Origin: Planktothrix tepida | Lineage (GTDB): Bacteria; Cyanobacteriota; Cyanobacteriia; Cyanobacteriales; Microcoleaceae | DNA: 64,000 nt | Direction: 5' to 3' (one strand) | NCBI RefSeq assembly: GCF_904830955.1 | Contig: NZ_LR882970.1 | Part shown: piece after piece, positions 13,875-27,715 of the stretch | Layout of the letters: each line of letters opens with the position of its first letter | Numbering within the stretch: the first letter of the stretch is position 1 | Position numbers and translations under genes: made by a program | Notes under the pieces: model-generated | What the model was told of the DNA's origin: nothing | Seen by the model: only the letters and a program-made list of their open reading frames with translations | The model's database searches: none

Positions 13875-15758
13875 TTAATCTGGAGTCGGAGAAATCTGTT
13901 TCATGACTTCAATATTAGCTGGCTTAATACTTGATTTTGCTTCTAAATCTTTAACTTGATTGGATTTTAGTTTGTCTAGCCAATTCACTAAAATCGTTTC
14001 GACATCATCAATAATCTGTTCTTTATTTAATTCTATGCGTAACTGATCTACAAACTTTTGAGTTAATTGTTTTTGTAACTGCATAGCTATAAAATCAGGG
14101 GGTTTATTTTTACCTTCCTCCAGAGATTTTTTAGGGTTTTCTGAAATAGCGATCGCAATTTTTTGGGCTACATTATTAGCAACTTGTTGGGGAAGATGAC
14201 GAACACCTGGAATTTTATTTAACCCTTTATAAATGGGGGATTTTTGGATGGATTGAGAAACTTGATAATGTACATAAGCTTCTAATTCAGGATGAATACT
14301 GGGTAAAACCTGAGTAATTGTAAGTTCAACAATCCGATTAGGAATTCCTGGGGGAACTTGTTGAGTCAGGTCTACAAAATCGAGGGCTTGATAGGAGGAA
14401 GCAGGATTACCGATTAAATTTTTAATCGCTCCTTTTTTCACAAAAGATTGAACTTGATTAACGCCTTGATTGACCAAAACTTGAATTAATTCTTGAGCAA
14501 AACTATAGATAAATTTTAATTTTAGATAATCAATAGTAGGCTGTAATCTAGGAAAATTAGCTCGATTCAAGTGATAAACGGCTGAAATAAACCGCAAGAA
14601 CAATAATTTAGGAATTAATAAAAACAAATAATACCATAATTTTAAAATAGCTTCCCTTAATGTCAACTCCGGTTGACGACGACGAAGGGCATAGATCTCC
14701 ATTAAAAATGTTAAAAAGAATAAGGTAATCCAAGGTAAATCAATCAACCAAAATCGGTTAACAAATTCACCATCTATTCCTAAATGTCGAAAATAAAATA
14801 ACTGCATTAACTCTTGCATTTCAGCTTCAAAAAATTGAAGTTCAGTTTCCCATCCATATTGTTCTAAGTTTTCAAGGCTCCAAAAAGTGTTAAACGCTTG
14901 TTTAGCGGATCGATCTGACCAAATTAACTCTGGGGCTAAAAAATTTAAGAGTTTAATTTGATATAAAAATTTTAAGGTGGGTGTCAGTCGAGTTGTAAAT
15001 TGGGGATCTCGACCATAAATATGATCAATAATTCGATATTTAATTTCCGTTAATTTCCCTAAATTAGGTTGTAATTGTAAGGGATAATTACGGTCAATCA
15101 GTTCTATGCTAATTTGACGAATTTCTTTCAATAAACTCTGAGATTTAGGGTGATTTAATCCGTTGTATTTTAAATTAACCTTTAATTCAGAAACTTTTCT
15201 TAAATAGTTTTGGCTAAGTCGATCCGGTTCAACCCCTTTAATCAGGTCATAGGTTAAACTAGGTTCATAAAAAATAATTAAAAATCGAATATTTTGATTA
15301 AAAAAAAGTAATTGCTTTTTCCAGGTTTTCTGATTAAAATAAACAGGACTCCAAAACAATTCTAAGGCTTGCTGAAAATTATTAGCCTTGACCTGATTTT
15401 GAAAACGTTTTTGAATTTCAGCTAAGGTTCCAGATGAATTAAGAACCGGAAAGGGAGGATTTTTAATGAATAGTTCTACACTGGATGTCTGAATCTGCTC
15501 TAAGGCTAGTTTAACTTGTTGAGATTCAATCCCAAATTGATTAATCGTTTTTTCAAGTTGATCAATTTGTTGTAAATATTGATTTTGAGGCGTATTTTCA
15601 GATTGTTGTTGATGTTGATCTATTTTTAAATAATATTCCCGAAATTTTATGTAGCTTAAATCAAAAATAACTAAACAGAAATTAGCAGTGACAACTAGAG
15701 CTAGAATTCGAGCCGTGAGTAGGGATAAACCACTGGATGGAGAAGATGACAATCGCAT
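13875..15758 (-). CDS. Hypothetical protein with N-terminal and central TM segments (627 aa)
   Basis: ORF with hydrophobic segments. Start is 19 nt downstream of the stop of the upstream flippase-like gene. Confidence 0.4.
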   Translation of the reverse strand: MRLSSSPSSGLSLLTARILALVVTANFCLVIFDLSYIKFREYYLKIDQHQQQSENTPQNQYLQQIDQLEKTINQFGIESQQVKLALEQIQTSSVELFIKNPPFPVLNSSGTLAEIQKRFQNQVKANNFQQALELFWSPVYFNQKTWKKQLLFFNQNIRFLIIFYEPSLTYDLIKGVEPDRLSQNYLRKVSELKVNLKYNGLNHPKSQSLLKEIRQISIELIDRNYPLQLQPNLGKLTEIKYRIIDHIYGRDPQFTTRLTPTLKFLYQIKLLNFLAPELIWSDRSAKQAFNTFWSLENLEQYGWETELQFFEAEMQELMQLFYFRHLGIDGEFVNRFWLIDLPWITLFFLTFLMEIYALRRRQPELTLREAILKLWYYLFLLIPKLLFLRFISAVYHLNRANFPRLQPTIDYLKLKFIYSFAQELIQVLVNQGVNQVQSFVKKGAIKNLIGNPASSYQALDFVDLTQQVPPGIPNRIVELTITQVLPSIHPELEAYVHYQVSQSIQKSPIYKGLNKIPGVRHLPQQVANNVAQKIAIAISENPKKSLEEGKNKPPDFIAMQLQKQLTQKFVDQLRIELNKEQIIDDVETILVNWLDKLKSNQVKDLEAKSSIKPANIEVMKQISPTPD

Positions 15759-20533: not shown

Positions 20534-21700
20534 TTGGTTTGCCATGTCCTCGCTCCCATAAGGGATGTGTCTCCGCTAAGAGGTTTTATGAGTCCTTCTC
20601 CCAATCGCTCCTCTCAATCTAAACGTTCTTCCCGCTCAAGTCCAGTTAATGAGCCAGCCGTGAATATGTCTAAAGATATCCATTTGGATGCACCTCATGA
20701 GAGTGAACGTGTCATCCCCGAACCGTTAAAAGAAACACCACCAGAACCAGAAAGTGCTGATCCAACACCCCAAGAGGGTGCATTGGATCAGCCTGAAATG
20801 ATGGAATCCGAAGAAGAAGCAGAGGAGGAATCTTCTGAATTTTCTGAATCTCCCGAATCTGTAGAGCGTCTCTGGCAACATCCAATTCCGCCCCCTAGCG
20901 AAGCTCGCCAGTATCGGGCTATTGGATTAGTTCATGGCCGATATATTGCTTCTGCGGATCAGTTTACCCAAGGAACTTTACTCACCAGTGAAGGAAAACT
21001 TCTGGATGCAGTGTTATTAGGTCGAGTCATGAGTTTAGTGAAAAAACATATTGACTTAGATCAAGATCATCTTTGGGTGGTATATCCTCGGACACGTCAA
21101 CAAGAAGGAAATTTACACGTTCAAATTATGGGGGTTTGGGAACCTGAAACCCTCCGATCTGATGAATCTGAAATTTCCGATGAATCTTCACCCGAAATAA
21201 AAGATTCTGCATCGGTTTCTGAGGAATCAAAGTTAGTAGAATCTGGGAATAAAATTGAAGCCTTACCGGACGTTCAACAGGGCTATTTTTCCATTCGAGG
21301 TGAGGTTGTTTATCAATCTCAAGAAGTTGAGAAATATGTCATTGTTAAAATTCGCCAAGCTCCTCGTAAAGATAATGATAAACCCAAGTTTTTCAAACTC
21401 AAACTGATGGGAATTGCGGGAATGAGAGCCGTCGGTCATTTCTGGGATTTACACGTTCAGTTACAGGAAGATTATTTGGTCATCCAAGAAAGTCATGATA
21501 TCGGCTTTCTTCCTACTAAAAAGCGCAAACCTCCCTTTCAAAAAGGTGGCCCCAGAAGACAACCGGGTCAGGGTTACTCTAATCCGGGTTCTCGTCCTCC
21601 TTATAAGCCTAAATTCCAATCGGATGCGCCTCCGCCTCCTCCCCGTCGAGAACCCCTTGCTAAACCGTTAAAACGGAAAGCTGCATCAGAAGAAAGTTAA
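20534..21700 (+). CDS. Hypothetical protein: acidic/Ser-Pro-rich N-terminus, internally duplicated core, Pro-rich C-terminus. The true start is probably an internal Met (about 20588 or 20666).
   Basis: ORF; two similar halves (…LLDAVLLGRVMSL…LWVVYPRT… / …KLKLMGIAGMRAVGHFWDLHVQLQEDYLVI…). Confidence 0.4.
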   Translation: MVCHVLAPIRDVSPLRGFMSPSPNRSSQSKRSSRSSPVNEPAVNMSKDIHLDAPHESERVIPEPLKETPPEPESADPTPQEGALDQPEMMESEEEAEEESSEFSESPESVERLWQHPIPPPSEARQYRAIGLVHGRYIASADQFTQGTLLTSEGKLLDAVLLGRVMSLVKKHIDLDQDHLWVVYPRTRQQEGNLHVQIMGVWEPETLRSDESEISDESSPEIKDSASVSEESKLVESGNKIEALPDVQQGYFSIRGEVVYQSQEVEKYVIVKIRQAPRKDNDKPKFFKLKLMGIAGMRAVGHFWDLHVQLQEDYLVIQESHDIGFLPTKKRKPPFQKGGPRRQPGQGYSNPGSRPPYKPKFQSDAPPPPPRREPLAKPLKRKAASEES

Positions 21701-21890: not shown

Positions 21891-23324
21891 TCAATCTTGA
21901 GACCGCTTTTTCACATATTCTTTAATCACAGGTTGAAGGGTGAAGCCAAATGCTTCCCTGTCTATAGCTTTTTCAATTAAACCGCGTTTCCTCAAAGACT
22001 GTACGGCTTTCAAAAATTCTGAGTCCGACAAAAATTCTGCGGGTTTACTGCAAATATCTGCTGCTGTCTCTTGGTTAGCTAACCATACCATGACCAATTT
22101 TTCTGACTCTGATAACCTTTGATAATGTTCCTGTAATATTGTTTCTAAGTCTCCTAAAAACAGAGTAGAATAAGATAGAAATTGAGCAACGCTACCATTA
22201 AATAAATCGAGTATCGTTAAAGCAATAATGTTTAACCAGGAAGGGTTTCCGCCATAAAGATTAATCAGTTTTAACCATTGATCTTGATCATTTAATCCTC
22301 TCGCCTTCAAGAGTTGTTCTCCTGACTCTCCTAAACCTTGAAGTTCTAAACTTCGACAATGGGAGTTTTCAGCTTCTAAGGTAGCAATTTCTATGGGTTT
22401 TTCCCAACTCAGGAGTAGCAAGCAACTGTTATGTGACGATCGCCCAATTTGCTTTAATAATTTACCATAATTTTTGTATTCTGGGAAATAACTACCGACT
22501 AATTCCCCACTGGTTAATGTTTCTTGAAAATCATCAAGGATAATCAAACAACGATGCGATCGCAAAGAGTCAATAATTGATAATTGTTGAGTTTCTTGCT
22601 GTCGGAAAAGAAACTCAATTAAGTTAGTTTTTAGGGATTTTAGACTAGAAAATTGACTATGACTTCGCCAGATTACCCGATCAAAGTCCTCTTTTATGTG
22701 TTCAACCAGTTGGGTAGCGAGGGCTGTTTTACCAATACCAGATAATCCAAAAATAGTGATGATACGACTATTTTCCGTCAGTATCCATTGTTTCAAGGTG
22801 TTTAATTCTTGGGTGCGGTTGCAAAATATTTCGCATTCTGAGACTTCGGTTATATCGTGGTATTTTTCGGGTTCATTGTTGTCTGAGTTAACGGGGGAAG
22901 GTGATCGGTTTTTTGTGGTTTCTTGAGAATGCGGATTTTCTCCACAGACTGTAATGCTACTTCCAAAAGATTGACTCTGTACAACAAAATTACCCACTTG
23001 GGAATTAGAAATATTATACCGTTCCATCGTGGCGCGGAAGTTTGATTTATTAACTTTTTCGCCTAATTCTTTTGATATTATTTCCCATAAATTGCTTGCA
23101 ACTCTCTTGACATTCGCTTCACTACAGTGATAGCGTTCAGCAATTTCTCCATATTTTTGATTATGCCAAACCCCTATTAACACAGCTTGTTGTAGACTAT
23201 TTAAGTGTGTTCCTGTTTTGATAAACATCAACTCATCGGCCCACTTCAGGATTGTTTGAACATCCATAGGCGATACAAATATTATTTTGTCAGAAATCAT
23301 ACTACTTTTTTCATCCTTTTGCAA
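21891..23324 (-). CDS. STAND-class NTPase: N-terminal HTH-like domain + NB-ARC/AAA P-loop domain, with no C-terminal repeat sensor
   Basis: Walker A GLSGIGKTALATQL; Walker B IILDDFQE. The N-terminal 90 aa resembles a sigma70-region-4-like HTH (QQAVLIGVWHNQKYGEIAERYHCSEANVKRVASNLWEII). Only 477 aa. Confidence 0.6.
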   Translation of the reverse strand: MQKDEKSSMISDKIIFVSPMDVQTILKWADELMFIKTGTHLNSLQQAVLIGVWHNQKYGEIAERYHCSEANVKRVASNLWEIISKELGEKVNKSNFRATMERYNISNSQVGNFVVQSQSFGSSITVCGENPHSQETTKNRSPSPVNSDNNEPEKYHDITEVSECEIFCNRTQELNTLKQWILTENSRIITIFGLSGIGKTALATQLVEHIKEDFDRVIWRSHSQFSSLKSLKTNLIEFLFRQQETQQLSIIDSLRSHRCLIILDDFQETLTSGELVGSYFPEYKNYGKLLKQIGRSSHNSCLLLLSWEKPIEIATLEAENSHCRSLELQGLGESGEQLLKARGLNDQDQWLKLINLYGGNPSWLNIIALTILDLFNGSVAQFLSYSTLFLGDLETILQEHYQRLSESEKLVMVWLANQETAADICSKPAEFLSDSEFLKAVQSLRKRGLIEKAIDREAFGFTLQPVIKEYVKKRSQD

Positions 23325-23565
23325 CTTTTTTTAACTAAACTCTACTTTTTAAACCAATGACTACTCAAAAAGGTCTGTCAAAATCTATCCAAACTTAGAC
23401 TTTTTATGACTTTACAAATTCCTGAGAATGCTTATTATGAAAAAGAGAGATAAAAATTAAATAAACTAGCTTTCAAGAGAGCTAGATTTGTAGTCCAATA
23501 TGAAATGACTGCTTGATTTTCAAGGGTATATTCATAGAAATTCGTTTAATCTTAGGAGAAAAGTC

Positions 23566-23760
23566 ATGAACCCAGACAAAACAGTTGAAAACATGGAACA
23601 GAAATTTAGCGCCCTCAGTGCTGAAGATTTGGAAAATTTGGAAGTTGAAGAACTTGAACAGCGTCTTGAGTTAGCAGCTATTGATTATACTGCAACTATT
23701 ATCACCTTTGCGGCGATCAAAACCCCTGATTGTAGGACACTAGGCGTTTGGTTTTGTTAG
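23566..23760 (+). CDS. Small precursor-like peptide (64 aa): acidic amphipathic leader-like N-terminus and hydrophobic Thr/Cys/Trp-containing C-terminus (…IDYTATIITFAAIKTPDCRTLGVWFC)
   Basis: Good SD (AGGAG 7 nt upstream of the ATG). Followed by a hairpin + U-tract. Immediately upstream of two putative processing-enzyme genes. Confidence 0.5.
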   Translation: MNPDKTVENMEQKFSALSAEDLENLEVEELEQRLELAAIDYTATIITFAAIKTPDCRTLGVWFC

Positions 23761-23783
23761 GATATAAATCTAATTTCACCTGA

Positions 23784-23846
23784 TAAATGCAGAATTCGTA
23801 CAGGCTTTTACACTGTAAAATCTGCATTTATTTTTGTTCATTTTTG
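23784..23846 (+). terminator. Putative attenuator/terminator between the peptide gene and the downstream enzyme genes
   Basis: taaatgcaga (23784-23793) pairs with tctgcattta (23821-23830), followed by tttttgttcatttttg. Confidence 0.35.
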
Positions 23847-23871
23847 ATATTTATTTATTCGATTTAAAATC

Positions 23872-24837
23872 ATGAATAATTTTAACTTTACAGAGAATCA
23901 TAATAACAACACAGATTTGATTGCGAAAGCAAACTTGCTACAAGCTCAAGAAACTATCGAAAATGTCGATAAAATTATTTGTGGTTTAGGTAACCAATGG
24001 CCTAATGATATAGAATTCCCAATAAACTTTGTTTTTTTAGAAAGATTTGGGCCTCTATTATTTTTAGATGTTTTTCCATCACTGACCCTAGAAACAATTC
24101 GCCCCATTATGGTTGCTGAAAAACTTTTAGGAACATCCTTGGTTATGTGTGATTGGATTACAGATCGTACAAACGATGCTTTTCTAGCCACTAAATACGG
24201 CTTGAGCATTCAAGCAATGCAGTTAGAAGGTTATCATATTTTATACTCTATTTTTCCTCCAAATTCAAAATTTTGGCAACGTTTTCGCAACTATTACCAA
24301 GAATATATGGATGCCTGCATTAAAGAACAAAAATTCGCTTCAGGCGAGTTACCCTTCTCTGAATATACCGAAGAATTAGCAATTGAAATCACGGCTAATA
24401 AATCAGCACCTATTAAAAGTAATATTGCTGCTTTAGTAGAATTGTCAGGGGATGAGAGTCTTTTTGAACCTTTGACTGCTGCTGTTAAACAGTATCTAAT
24501 TGCTCGTCAAATCTGGGACGATATTCAAGACTGGAAAGAAGATTTACAGTTTGGTATTCCTTCTTTATTACTGTCGCGTATTATTCAGGAATGGCCGATT
24601 AAACCTGATGAAATTAACCTAAAAAACTTAACTAAAAAAATGTACTATGGCGGACATATAAACTATGTAATCGAAATCGCTTGTCAAAGTCTTGAACTCG
24701 CTAAAGAACTAACAAAAGATATTCCCGAACTGGCTTGGCGAAGTGTAGCAATTTCAGCTTTAGAGAGTAATTTTAAATCACTATCTCAGGATATCGAAAA
24801 AATCTGTAATAAAAATCTTGAATCATTGCAAAAGTAG
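23872..24837 (+). CDS. All-alpha enzyme with a single isoprenoid-synthase-type aspartate-rich motif (IARQIWDDIQDWKED, like the FQxxDDxxD SARM / DDxxDxxxE of trans-prenyltransferases and terpene synthases). Candidate ComQ-like peptide isoprenyltransferase; function unproven.
   Basis: Motif read directly. 321 aa, about the size of Bacillus ComQ. Low-GC codon usage. No SD. Confidence 0.3.
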   Translation: MNNFNFTENHNNNTDLIAKANLLQAQETIENVDKIICGLGNQWPNDIEFPINFVFLERFGPLLFLDVFPSLTLETIRPIMVAEKLLGTSLVMCDWITDRTNDAFLATKYGLSIQAMQLEGYHILYSIFPPNSKFWQRFRNYYQEYMDACIKEQKFASGELPFSEYTEELAIEITANKSAPIKSNIAALVELSGDESLFEPLTAAVKQYLIARQIWDDIQDWKEDLQFGIPSLLLSRIIQEWPIKPDEINLKNLTKKMYYGGHINYVIEIACQSLELAKELTKDIPELAWRSVAISALESNFKSLSQDIEKICNKNLESLQK

Positions 24838-24856
24838 ACTATTCAAAACAACATAA

Positions 24857-26056
24857 ATGCACAAAAAATATAGCTTGCAAGAACTTCAAAAAAGACTGGT
24901 GGTGGAAACATCAGAAAATCGACCTGTTTATTTATTATTAGTGGGTAATCCCCCCAAATATATCCGATTATCTGTTTTTGCCTATGAACTCCTCTACGAA
25001 AATAGCTTAGGTAAATCCTTTGAAGAAATTTCTGAAATAGTCCGGCAAAAAACAGGGAAAAATCTATCACCCTCTGAGGTAGAGGCAGCTTATCAAAAAG
25101 TCATCTCTGACCTGAGCGAAATCGAAGAAAATAAAAAAAACCAGCTTTCAGGTTTTTTACTGCGCCTGCCACTTATCCCCCAAAAAATTGTTAATAAGAT
25201 TGCATCTTATCTTTCAGTTGCCTATTATCAACCCGTAGCGATTTTACTTTTAACTATTATTATTGTAGCTACAGGATTTGCCCCGCGAAATGATTTATTT
25301 TTAAGATTGGCAAAAGAAGACTTAATTTGGGGATACTTTTTCTTTTTCATTTCTCTGCTATTCCACGAGTTAGGTCATGCTAGTGCTTGCGTTTATTATG
25401 GGGCAGAACCTAGTAATATTGGTTTAACAATTTACTTCATATTTCCAGCCTTTTATAGCGATGTCACCGATGCTTGGAGATTGAAACGTTGGCAGCGCGT
25501 CATCATTGATTTTGGAGGAGTATTTTTTCAACTAATTGTTGGTGCAATTTATATAATTTTTTACAAATTTACGGAATGGGCTGCCCTTAAAATAGCTATT
25601 TTAGCGATCGCTTCCAGTTGTATTTTATATCTAAACCCAGTCTTTAAATTTGATGGTTACTGGGCTTTATCAGACGCTTTAGGTGTGACCAATCTCAGTC
25701 GAGAACCCGGACGCATTTTCCGTCACATATTTAGTCAAATCAACAACCCATCAAACAAGCGTTTACCCTGGTCTCCACTAATGATGTCTTTTCTGGCAAT
25801 CTACACAGTTACTAGCTTTAGCATTATAGGATATTTTATCTGGCTAGTTTTCCCAATTTTATGGCGACAACTTCTGGGCTATCCTCTTGTAATAACTACC
25901 TTCATCGAGAAATTATTCACTTCCCCTAACCAACTGGGTTTTGAGCAAATTACATCTTTTCTGACTTCTACATTGATGGTCGGTATCCTCTTGTTAATAG
26001 GTTGGAAATTCATCCAATTTTTATTGACGGCTATGAGAAGATTATTGAAGAAATGA
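24857..26056 (+). CDS. Intramembrane zinc metalloprotease, M50 (site-2-protease-like), with ~110-aa cytoplasmic N-terminal extension
   Basis: HExxH inside a TM helix (LFHELGHASACV) and downstream NPxxxxDG (YLNPVFKFDGYWA), the two hallmark S2P motifs. Multiple TM helices. Confidence 0.55.
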   Translation: MHKKYSLQELQKRLVVETSENRPVYLLLVGNPPKYIRLSVFAYELLYENSLGKSFEEISEIVRQKTGKNLSPSEVEAAYQKVISDLSEIEENKKNQLSGFLLRLPLIPQKIVNKIASYLSVAYYQPVAILLLTIIIVATGFAPRNDLFLRLAKEDLIWGYFFFFISLLFHELGHASACVYYGAEPSNIGLTIYFIFPAFYSDVTDAWRLKRWQRVIIDFGGVFFQLIVGAIYIIFYKFTEWAALKIAILAIASSCILYLNPVFKFDGYWALSDALGVTNLSREPGRIFRHIFSQINNPSNKRLPWSPLMMSFLAIYTVTSFSIIGYFIWLVFPILWRQLLGYPLVITTFIEKLFTSPNQLGFEQITSFLTSTLMVGILLLIGWKFIQFLLTAMRRLLKK

Positions 26057-26226: not shown

Positions 26227-27336
26227 TTAACGGGATTCATTATTCAAACCCATCTGTTTTAATCGAGTTTCAATAAACTTTTTCCCTTGTTTTTCCCCAT
26301 CTTGAATCAAGCGATTAATCATTTCTGGAGAGCGATCTAATTTACTTTCATAATTCAATAGTTTGGCTAAATCTTCAGACATTTCAATCATCGGAATATG
26401 GTAATCTTGGTCAGGATCATCAGGAAAAGATTTAGGAATTTTCATCGGTTCTTTCACATCAATTTTAGCGAGAAATTCCTCGTTAAATGCCCCCCTTAAA
26501 AAGAGATTATTGAGATTTTCGATTTCACCAAGGCTTTGAAATAAAGAGAGGTTTCCCTCTAATTCATTACGACGATCAGCAATATCATCGGCCTCTGTGG
26601 GAATCTTATCCCTAGTTGTGGGATTGATTTTAATCACCCAAATTTCTTGGGGAAGATTAGCAATTCCCACAAAATTGCTTTTAATCAAAGAATCAATCGG
26701 TGGATTATCGGAAAAAAGTCCGTCCCAATAAGCCATTTCTTCAATAGAAACAGCCGGGAAAAGGTTCGGTATGCAAGCAGAAGCCAAGATATGTTCGAGT
26801 TTAATAGCTTCGCGATAGGAGTTGAATTTATGTAATCTCCCTGTGAGGATATTACAAGCGCCGATCAGTAAAATTGGGGGTTCGGGTTGCATACCCCAAG
26901 TCGCTAATTCTGAGAAATCAATATGAGATCCTAGTAATTCTTCAAAATCAGTAAATCGACGGCGTAAACCTTGGGTCGCAAAGGAAAACCAAGCTTTAAC
27001 AATCGGTGAATAAGGACTTAAATTGTACTGAGGAATTTTCCCTTTGCTGACCCATTCCAGAGTTTTAATTGCAGAATCGTTGAAAAACTTTTCTTGAGCG
27101 GTTTGGGCTGTATTATCTTCCCAAAAGTCGATCAGTCGTTTCCAAACAATATCATCTCCTTTTTTCAGGGCGTACCAAATCAGAAATGCACAGATCGCGC
27201 CTCCAGAAGTTCCACTTAAGCTGACAATATTAAAATAATCCTGAATCTTGTTTTCAAATAGGGCTTTAAAGACACCCGCCGTGAAAGCGGTTTGGCTTCC
27301 TCCTCCCTGACAAGCGATCGCAATTTTAGGCTTCAT
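26227..27336 (-). CDS. Patatin-like phospholipase
   Basis: Gly-rich oxyanion loop (ACQGGGSQTAFTAGV), GxSxG nucleophile elbow (LSGTSGGA) and the downstream Asp motif region. Confidence 0.7.
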   Translation of the reverse strand: MKPKIAIACQGGGSQTAFTAGVFKALFENKIQDYFNIVSLSGTSGGAICAFLIWYALKKGDDIVWKRLIDFWEDNTAQTAQEKFFNDSAIKTLEWVSKGKIPQYNLSPYSPIVKAWFSFATQGLRRRFTDFEELLGSHIDFSELATWGMQPEPPILLIGACNILTGRLHKFNSYREAIKLEHILASACIPNLFPAVSIEEMAYWDGLFSDNPPIDSLIKSNFVGIANLPQEIWVIKINPTTRDKIPTEADDIADRRNELEGNLSLFQSLGEIENLNNLFLRGAFNEEFLAKIDVKEPMKIPKSFPDDPDQDYHIPMIEMSEDLAKLLNYESKLDRSPEMINRLIQDGEKQGKKFIETRLKQMGLNNESR

Positions 27337-27421: not shown

Positions 27422-27715
27422 CTACGCACATCCGCTATCGCGCTCGATGTGCGTTTCTGACGCTTCAACTGAGAAACTTGCTTGAAGCTTCCGCACTCCT
27501 GTAGAGGTATTCTCATCTGCATCTGAAGAGGCACGTTCCATACCCCTTGCATAATTAAGCATCACCATTGCTGCGGCAACATCTCTATCACAATGAAACC
27601 CGCAATTAACACAATGATGTTCTCTTTCTGCTAATGTTTTCTTCTTCTGATGACCGCAATTTGGGCAAGTTTGTGAAGGTTTAACTTTTTGAGTGGGAAC
27701 CTCAACTTGTCCCAT
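27422..27715 (-). pseudogene. tnpB: Relic of an IS200/IS605-family tnpB: only the C-terminal Zn-ribbon/RuvC-III part remains (about 97 aa of an expected ~400 aa)
   Basis: TSQTCPNCGHQKKKTLAEREHHCVNCGFHCDRDVAAAMVMLNYARG matches the TnpB OrfB_Zn_ribbon terminus. No upstream ORF continues the protein. Confidence 0.6.

Follow-up and report, generated by a model that had tools for sequence, protein, structure and literature searches.

What do three adjacent genes in the cyanobacterium Planktothrix tepida PCC 9214, all deposited as 'hypothetical protein', make? They encode a 64-aa peptide, a 321-aa protein and a 399-aa protease, all on the plus strand of a 64,000-nt stretch of contig NZ_LR882970.1, referred to here as the window. 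With a probability of about 0.7, they and a divergent fourth gene form a cassette for a prenylated peptide of the ribosomally made, post-translationally modified class (RiPP), a cyclase-free relative of the ChrPC-type maturase. The cassette is conserved and unannotated; it is a variant of a peptide-prenylating type described in 2024 and is not categorically new. A first-pass annotation, made from the sequence alone, had proposed a minimal RiPP-like isoprenylated peptide, and this is the best-supported reading of the locus, with a near-C-terminal Trp as the best acceptor candidate. All the tests that the annotation had listed as capable of refuting it were run, and the proposal survived them.

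Gene layout and conservation

The three open reading frames (ORFs) lie where the first-pass annotation had placed them. The precursor peptide gene PCC9214_02518 (23566-23760, plus strand, 64 aa) is followed by the enzyme gene PCC9214_02519 (23872-24837, plus strand), which encodes a stand-alone trans-isoprenyl-diphosphate-synthase-like protein of 321 aa, the 'P' enzyme. The protease gene PCC9214_02520 (24857-26056, plus strand, 399 aa) starts 19 nt past the enzyme stop codon; its putative product is an M50 protease with a RiPP recognition element (RRE). The 'hypothetical protein' label is the same in Planktothrix agardhii.

The cassette had been proposed on the expectation that homologues of its genes would be syntenic elsewhere, and they are, in many genomes of three phyla. 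In a comparison of related loci (numbered L001 upward), the triad of peptide, enzyme and protease was found again in cyanobacteria, Chloroflexota and Acidobacteriota, with the M50 gene 3' of the enzyme gene in most loci. Because the same triad recurs across three phyla, its recurrence is beyond chance.

The precursor peptide

The 64-aa peptide has a leader part (aa 1-38, 23566-23679, plus strand) ending in ...LEVEELEQRLELAA and a core part (aa 39-64, IDYTATIITFAAIKTPDCRTLGVWFC, 23680-23760 with the stop codon, plus strand), the boundary between the two being putative. Trp62 is the third residue from the C-terminal end and the two Cys residues are C56 and C64, as first read. The leader motif [LN]xxxL[DE]VEELExRLE[LM], in summary form LxVEELExRLEL and followed by a variable tail, is found upstream of the enzyme gene in almost every locus from cyanobacteria, Chloroflexota and Acidobacteriota. 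Between P. tepida and strain FACHB-1365 the leader is 100% identical, and nine of the ten nucleotide differences fall in core codons 47-57. Conservation of the small ORF had been named as a test of the proposal. Its leader is invariant, its core is hypervariable and it lies next to the gene for the putative maturase, which is the pattern of a RiPP precursor. To judge from it, the 64-aa peptide is a genuine one. There are no further precursor genes in the window besides this ORF.

Nine distinct cores were compared among close relatives, defined as those with enzymes at least 60% identical: IDYTATIITFAAIKTPDCRTLGVWFC in the window, IDYTATIIPFHALKMPDCKTLGVWFC in FACHB-1365, IDYMAAFNFFAAVPVGNPCPKSKWPWGC in P. 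agardhii, IDYTAAIFAVDVPNCKQLRVWFC in L044, IDFTASVLNVNNDISPSCEELRVWGC in L047, FDYTASVLTAGKGGLPDPGQICPPKSHWFC in Oscillatoria, IDYTSSSFFAGPPLPSCKQMKSWIC in Microcoleus anatoxicus, IDFTASVLKAQLLPDYCEEDVFNLACW in L002 and VGLPDYGIGWPK in Hormoscilla, which has a Trp and no Cys. All nine contain Trp; given the local Trp frequency of 1.8%, the probability of this for the first eight is ~2e-4. Seven of the nine end in W-x-C, and eight have two Cys. The string 'LGVW' is common to the window core and Chloroflexota cores (...PLGVWCDCN...). On this comparison Trp62 is the best-supported acceptor candidate.

Outside the close relatives the cores are more diverse. In Nostoc and Microcystis, the precursors of fused enzymes (described below) carry a Trp shortly after the leader. 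Across the wider family some cores lack Trp, and the acceptor may thus vary from clade to clade. A distant unfused clade (L004, L015-L017, L030-L032, L036; 25-30% identity) has short precursors with the leader IEELEARLxxEE and cores that end in ...LLSYL, ...MLSYL or ...LLLYLY and contain neither Trp nor Cys. Because of this the acceptor in the '...LLSYL'-type clade must, on its cores, be a different one, perhaps Tyr or the C-terminus. A phmmer search for an M50 homologue in the fetched flanks of L015-L017 found none. In Acidobacteriota and metagenomes (L011, L012, L026, L021, L022, L024), fused-enzyme precursors have Trp-less, Cys-rich cores with CGxNC-type repeats or ends such as GGCYING and FSCYIN. 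An aromatic residue beside Cys recurs family-wide, as WC, YC, WxC or CY.

The 321-aa enzyme

The first-pass annotation had read an isoprenoid-synthase motif in the 321-aa protein; the match to such synthases came from a family profile and a fold search and not from the single sequence. PF00348 did not match the protein even at E <= 1, and phmmer against PDB sequences returned noise only. A word-indexed homology search found 11 relatives; the fused relatives were reached by an exhaustive profile search, which collected 1362 clusters (50% identity) at E <= 1e-3. A family profile built from 57 members matches the PDB polyprenyl synthetase 4lob at E 2.4e-10, and its alignment to 4lob and 3oyr covers the first Asp-rich motif, the KT motif (K177-S-A) and FQxxDDxxD. 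[quoted passage not shown] Two marks of canonical trans-IDS enzymes, the KT motif and the FQxxDDxxD form of the second Asp-rich motif (SARM), are present; two others, the PF00348 match and the basic motifs that bind isopentenyl diphosphate (IPP), are not.

The pattern of conservation was taken from 148 family representatives. The SARM, IARQIWDDIQDWKED, is present as first noted, with Q213 at 95% and D216, D217 and D220 at 99-100%; D224 likewise falls within 95-100%. It is not the only conserved motif, as had been claimed: D94xxxD98, W135, E152 and K177 are equally conserved. D94, D98, K177, Q213, D216, D217, D220 and D224 are conserved at 93-100%, and W135, E152 and W221 are also among the most conserved positions. 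The first motif reads D94-W-I-T-D98, and its second position is never Asp in the family consensus. No basic residue is conserved before position 177, so that neither IPP-binding motif (GKRxR at the N-terminus; RRG past the first Asp-rich motif, the FARM) is found. There is no conserved Zn-binding Cys/His site of the thiol-alkylating type in the enzyme family.

By these motifs, the site for the donor diphosphate and Mg2+ is retained in the 321-aa enzyme. Because this site is kept while the basic IPP-binding motifs are not conserved, the pattern is that expected, from known trans-IDS motifs, of a prenyltransferase to a non-IPP acceptor and not of a chain-elongating synthase. A Gln directly upstream of the retained SARM, a feature tied to Trp recognition, is present (Q213, with D216).

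One close relative, P0005 (309 aa, 66% identical to the window enzyme), is labelled 'MAG TPA: Flavobacterium sp.' by NCBI, while all the others come from oscillatorian cyanobacteria. It is probably a misbinned contig; horizontal transfer is less likely.

Cyclase-fused relatives

More than half of the listed family representatives (83 of 149) have at least 600 aa, mostly ~670-700 aa, with the family domain at the N-terminus. Their C-terminal halves match SQHop_cyclase_C (E 1e-12 to 1e-20) and have QW repeats and a conserved GGWxY...PDADD, with no conserved Cys or His. DxDD is the acid motif of class II terpene cyclases. A reading of this C domain as a Zn-dependent thiol-alkylating toroid, like LanC or the farnesyltransferase beta subunit, was rejected on the lack of conserved Cys and His and the presence of the DADD and QW motifs. 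Over 300 aa, the P domains of ~690-aa fusions from Nostoc (PCC 7524 among them) share 41% identity with the window enzyme; for those from Microcystis the figure is 40%. Fused and unfused enzymes interleave in a distance tree. The fused loci of Nostoc and Microcystis share the leader motif and the M50 gene with the window cassette.

The cyclase C-domain profile detects every fused locus, and an hmmsearch with it gave no match in the 64-kb window or the close loci L001-L007. The idea of a cyclase gene hidden elsewhere in the window was rejected on the same search. Because there is no cyclase domain in the window, the prenyl chain of the product should be linear.

Some fused enzymes lie inside larger clusters, as in L037 (Nostoc sp. 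PCC 7524, CP003552 6117066-6129114) and L039 (Microcystis aeruginosa). These clusters encode a radical SAM enzyme, a precursor with the same leader, the fusion, an M50 protease, a MacB/FtsX permease and a membrane fusion protein; the Nostoc PCC 7524 cluster additionally has an Rce1-like gene (of the CaaX-protease family) and a glycosyltransferase gene. The metagenomic protein P0138 (988 aa) carries a third, C-terminal domain after the prenyltransferase and the cyclase, a GldB-lipoprotein/DUF2268 domain that is predicted to be Zn-protease-like, which hints at a Bacteroidota version with a fused protease.

The protease

The 399-aa protein has both of the site-2 protease (S2P) hallmarks reported in the first reading, HELGH at aa 170-174 (nt 25364-25378) and NPVFKFDG at aa 260-267 (nt 25634-25657), and both are invariant in 45 homologues. 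These motifs, of the HExxH and NxxPxxxxDG types, lie within membrane helices, and the core fold is that of S2P, as in M50 enzymes. The NCBIfam model for the daptide protease MpaP (daptide_HExxH, NF041824) matches at E 5e-34, with 118 bits against an equivalog cut-off of 300, and that for YydH/LiaK (NF058609) at E 1e-15, with 58 bits against a cut-off of 225. By these scores the protein is homologous to the MpaP and YydH-LiaK equivalogs and belongs to another subfamily.

The N-terminal 130 aa of the orthologues match PqqD (PF05402; 24.4 bits for the orthologue in L008). In the AlphaFold2 (AF2) model of the protease (pLDDT 84), a domain of three strands followed by three helices precedes the membrane helices; this domain, at ~aa 14-91 (nt 24896-25129), is a three-stranded sheet with a three-helix winged-helix part, like PqqD and the lasso peptide B1 proteins. 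Taken together, the matches and the model make the protein a leader-recognition element fused to a site-2-type protease. The joining of a PqqD-like recognition domain to an S2P-type protease speaks strongly, if circumstantially, for binding and removal of the conserved leader by this protein, which is probably the leader peptidase of the cassette. M50 enzymes are known as RiPP peptidases in the epipeptide and pearlin pathways, with documented removal of leader or scaffold (PMC10885120).

The fourth gene and regulatory elements

A gene divergent from the precursor gene (21891-23324, minus strand, 477 aa) encodes a protein with a helix-turn-helix (HTH) and an NB-ARC NTPase domain of the STAND class. 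The NB-ARC domain matches Pfam at E 3.4e-13, and a weak HTH of the sigma-70 r4/LuxR type lies at aa 40-79; the protein has no effector domain and no meaningful match in PADLOC. All close cyanobacterial loci that have upstream sequence (L001/7, L002/3, L006, L042-44 and L047-50) carry an orthologue in this divergent position upstream of the precursor gene, and the gene is absent at the Chloroflexota and Acidobacteriota loci. It belongs to the cyanobacterial cassette as its fourth gene, and its product is probably the regulator of the pathway.

Several sequence elements surround the precursor gene. A promoter-like site, TTTACA-16-TATTAT (23411-23438, plus strand), matches the consensus at 10 of 12 positions, the best in the region, and is kept among the Planktothrix loci. 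A consensus scan found 17 such sites where 11.3 were expected, so that the site upstream of the precursor gene counts as a consensus match only. An imperfect palindrome, AAACTAGCTTTC/GAGAGCTAGATT (23463-23488), is an inverted repeat that looks like a hairpin on both strands. It sits between the promoter-like site and the Shine-Dalgarno sequence, is kept in the Planktothrix loci and partly in L044, and is possibly an operator for the HTH/NB-ARC protein or a hairpin in the 5' untranslated region. The Shine-Dalgarno sequence, AGGAGA (23554-23559, plus strand), is present as first described; it lies 6 nt ahead of the precursor ATG and is conserved in related loci.

A terminator-like hairpin followed by a T-run (23782-23845, plus strand) separates the precursor gene from the enzyme gene. 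It had been noticed in the first pass, and its stem (23782-23832) folds at -18.8 kcal/mol, with z -3.4 against dinucleotide shuffles; one of 200 shuffles folds as well. In seven related loci, L042, L044, L005, L006, L002 and L047 among them, this position is taken by a stem-loop of different sequence, and because of this the hairpin after the precursor gene is regarded as a conserved feature. It is probably a partial terminator that sets the stoichiometry of precursor to enzyme by attenuation. An Rfam scan of the window found no known structured RNA.

Comparison with known systems

In a review (PMC13290415), three enzymes are given as trans-IDS-like peptide prenyltransferases, namely ComQ, PalQ and, within ChrPC, the P domain (Hubrich et al., Chem 2024). 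Those characterized all target Trp, and recognition of the indole is attributed to a Gln just upstream of the SARM and to the first SARM Asp (PMC13290415). In ChrPC, the P domain transfers the prenyl group of C10-C20 donors to an internal Trp, and the C domain then cyclizes this group (PMC13290415). The first-pass annotation knew of nothing similar; in fact such enzymes are known outside Bacillus, including the ChrPC fusion (PMC13290415), and homologues of the fusion are common in Nostoc and Microcystis. A literature search on RiPPs with M50 proteases and polyprenyl synthetases, and on ChrPC/NctPC, found nothing beyond this review.

By analogy, the closest known kind is the ChrPC-type maturase. 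As far as the description of ChrPC goes, the likeness lies in a trans-IDS-like enzyme, a ribosomal precursor with an internal Trp and a Gln lying upstream of the SARM, which is retained. Homology links the window enzyme to P domains that have a class II terpene cyclase domain fused to them, but in the window such a domain is neither fused nor adjacent to the enzyme, and the prenyl group of the product would be linear rather than polycyclic. Compared to the fused clusters of Nostoc and Microcystis, the window cassette is minimal, without genes for a radical SAM enzyme, an exporter or a glycosyltransferase, and it adds the HTH/NB-ARC gene. Its core has C-x5-W-x-C near the C-terminus, whereas the Trp comes soon after the leader in fused-enzyme cores.

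The ComQ/ComX system of Bacillus and StheQ/StheX of Sphaerobacter (IPR033965), to which the locus had first been likened, share with it an enzyme of the isoprenyl pyrophosphate synthase (IPPS) fold, an adjacent precursor of ~55-70 aa and a Trp 2-4 residues from the C-terminus (W62 of 64 here). Membership in the ComQ family did not hold up. ComQ and StheQ have a DDxxD FARM and a pseudo-SARM NDxxx, with the X gene downstream of the Q gene (PMC10853753; bioRxiv 10.64898/2026.08.29.745113), whereas the window enzyme has D94-W-I-T-D98 and an invariant full QxxDDxxD, and its peptide gene is upstream. It has no match to the ComQ sequence family in Pfam or NCBIfam. The organization is not that of comQXPA either: the partners are the HTH/NB-ARC and M50 genes, with no histidine kinase or response regulator and thus no counterpart of ComP and ComA, and the cassette has a dedicated RRE-M50 protease. 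We know of no identified protease for ComX.

PalQ/PalX of Paenibacillus alvei is also a stand-alone RiPP Trp prenyltransferase of the isoprenoid-synthase fold in a three-gene cluster (PMC10853753), but the leader of PalX is of the NHLP kind and its Trp is strictly C-terminal, and the partner is a histidine kinase and not a protease; PalQ and ChrPC fall in separate clusters of a published similarity network (PMC13290415). Ord1 (PDB 9v4g), an all-alpha indole prenyltransferase, farnesylates free tryptophan and has no precursor or protease partners. The M50 proteases of other RiPP clusters (MpaP, NF041824; EpeP/YydH/LiaK; TglG/TmoG of the pearlins) are likewise intramembrane HExxH zinc proteases, though the window protease differs from them in its N-terminal PqqD-like RRE and in its pathway. 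Compared to PqqD and the lasso B1 proteins (TfuB1, TbiB1), which go with a modifying enzyme, the RRE-like domain here is fused to a membrane protease, and its binding of the leader is predicted.

Proposed pathway and alternatives

In the proposed pathway, the precursor and the enzymes would be co-transcribed, with the leaky hairpin after the precursor gene leaving the precursor in excess, and the divergent HTH/NB-ARC protein would control transcription. The enzyme would bind an allylic prenyl diphosphate through D94xxxD98, K177, Q213xxDDxxD and Mg2+ and ionize this C10-C20 donor, drawn from the cellular isoprenoid pool. The prenyl cation would pass to the core peptide, going by the relatives most probably to the indole of Trp62 in the C-x5-W-x-C end, held by Q213 and D216, and would remain linear, as the cyclase domain is absent. 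The membrane M50 protease would dock on the conserved leader (LEVEELEQRLEL) through its PqqD-like domain and cut it off at the membrane, possibly coupled to release of the product. More speculatively, Cys56 and Cys64 may close a 9-residue disulfide loop around the prenyl-Trp. This pathway rests on folds, motifs, P-domain homology, synteny and the conservation of leader and core, from which we infer the transfer, its donor and acceptor, the cleavage and the disulfide.

Several points weigh against it. Single-sequence scans of the 321-aa enzyme gave no Pfam or NCBIfam match, its AF2 model was built on 12 sequences only, and its first Asp-rich motif is degenerate (DxxxD compared to DDxxD). Many Acidobacteriota cores and the distant '...LLSYL' clade have no Trp, and the two conserved Cys could be acceptors and not a disulfide. 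RRE domains usually serve modifying enzymes. The fused family would be the ChrPC family by the architecture described for it (PMC13290415).

Some of these points carry over into other readings of the locus. One of them keeps the same cassette but moves the prenyl group to C56 and/or C64, as in a bacterial counterpart of CaaX- or Rab-type prenylation, with Trp as a recognition residue only. Eight of the nine close cores have exactly two Cys, one of them at or beside the C-terminus; many fused-enzyme cores are Cys-rich, some without Trp, and the Nostoc PCC 7524 cluster has its Rce1-like gene. The Hormoscilla core VGLPDYGIGWPK, however, has a Trp and no Cys, the characterized trans-IDS-like peptide prenyltransferases are all directed to Trp and share the Gln-SARM feature that is present here (PMC13290415), and the enzyme has no conserved Zn-binding Cys/His site as in thiol-alkylating enzymes. 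S-prenylation of Cys is therefore speculative and unlikely. It is quite unlikely that the 321-aa protein acts on the peptide without prenyl transfer, as a leader-binding scaffold or through some other chemistry at the Asp site. The degenerate DxxxD motif and the lack of a direct Pfam match would suit such a role, but the diphosphate and Mg2+ residues are the most conserved positions of the family (93-100%), which is unexpected for a scaffold, and relatives are joined to a class II terpene cyclase domain whose DxDD-type motif is intact and which requires a prenyl substrate.

An ordinary isoprenyl diphosphate or terpene synthase producing a small terpenoid, with the small ORF and the protease as mere neighbours, would account for the fold and the SARM of trans-IDS enzymes and for the JGI labels of relatives as squalene-hopene or tetraprenyl-beta-curcumene cyclases. 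This is very improbable – a leader-type ORF and an RRE-M50 gene accompany the enzyme gene across three phyla, the protease has a domain for recognition of peptide leaders, the IPP-binding motifs are not conserved, and the 19-nt gap to the protease gene makes for tight packing. Least credible, at the edge of what is worth considering, is an anti-phage or conflict island of STAND NTPase, patatin phospholipase and protease in which the peptide is incidental. Genes for a STAND NTPase and a patatin-like phospholipase do flank the cassette, and there is a TnpB relic nearby. Against this, PADLOC gave only marginal P-loop or short matches, the patatin gene is missing from the locus of P. agardhii and from others, the STAND protein carries an HTH without an effector domain, and the triad is conserved in other phyla without STAND or patatin genes.

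The prenylated-peptide cassette can also be extended to a function, which may be antimicrobial or that of a signal, although a role as a pheromone or signal is speculation. In this unlikely elaboration, a linear C15-C20 prenyl group on the lone Trp of a C-x5-W-x-C disulfide nonapeptide, released by the RRE-M50 protease, would be a strain-specific pheromone of filamentous cyanobacteria, sensed by the HTH/NB-ARC protein as a STAND receptor-regulator. If true, this would be a ComX-like quorum-sensing circuit assembled from unrelated components, and the first whose dedicated maturation protease is identified.

Significance of the cassette

Planktothrix is a bloom-forming genus known for bioactive peptides, and because of this the locus is taken to predict an undescribed class of lipidated peptides in it. 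PCC 9214 is a culture-collection strain designation, and the prediction is directly testable if the strain is obtainable. Neither Pfam nor NCBIfam has a model for the enzyme family, large as it is with 1362 clusters at 50% identity, and routine genome mining does not see it. The stand-alone version would be a small system (precursor, one enzyme, one protease) in which to study peptide prenylation by the IDS fold, and possibly a tool for lipidating a near-C-terminal Trp in disulfide loops. The RRE-fused M50 protease may represent the type of maturation protease that is missing from ComX-like pathways.

Surroundings of the cassette

The window flanks contain mainly genes of housekeeping type, such as those for RodA, homocysteine biosynthesis and an AI-2E transporter. 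The cassette has a GC content of 0.35, compared to ~0.39 for the window, and other window segments are lower (0.31-0.33). The low-GC island of the first-pass annotation is thus weak, and horizontal acquisition on the basis of GC content is speculation. The TnpB relic reported with it is real: at 27422-27715 (minus strand, 97 aa), the C-terminal TNB domain alone matches Pfam, at E 1.7e-11.

The patatin-like phospholipase gene (26227-27336, minus strand, Pfam E 1.7e-15) lies downstream of the cassette. It and the TnpB relic adjoin the cassette in P. tepida and FACHB-1365 alone; in P. agardhii an SBF transporter gene takes the place of the patatin gene. As the patatin gene is not conserved outside these two strains, it was rejected as a member of the cassette.

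Two ORFs to the left of the cassette have no Pfam match. One (20534-21700, plus strand) encodes a 388-aa protein rich in Pro, Glu and Ser; the other (13875-15758, minus strand, 627 aa) lies in the lowest-GC segment of that half of the window (0.327). In the Hormoscilla metagenome-assembled genome (L001/L007, OZ001293.3, 6900-7934), precursor copies are duplicated and partly truncated, the stretch between the precursor and enzyme genes contains repeats, and an insertion sequence (DDE_Tnp_1) lies beside the STAND gene, which suggests that this locus was recently rearranged.

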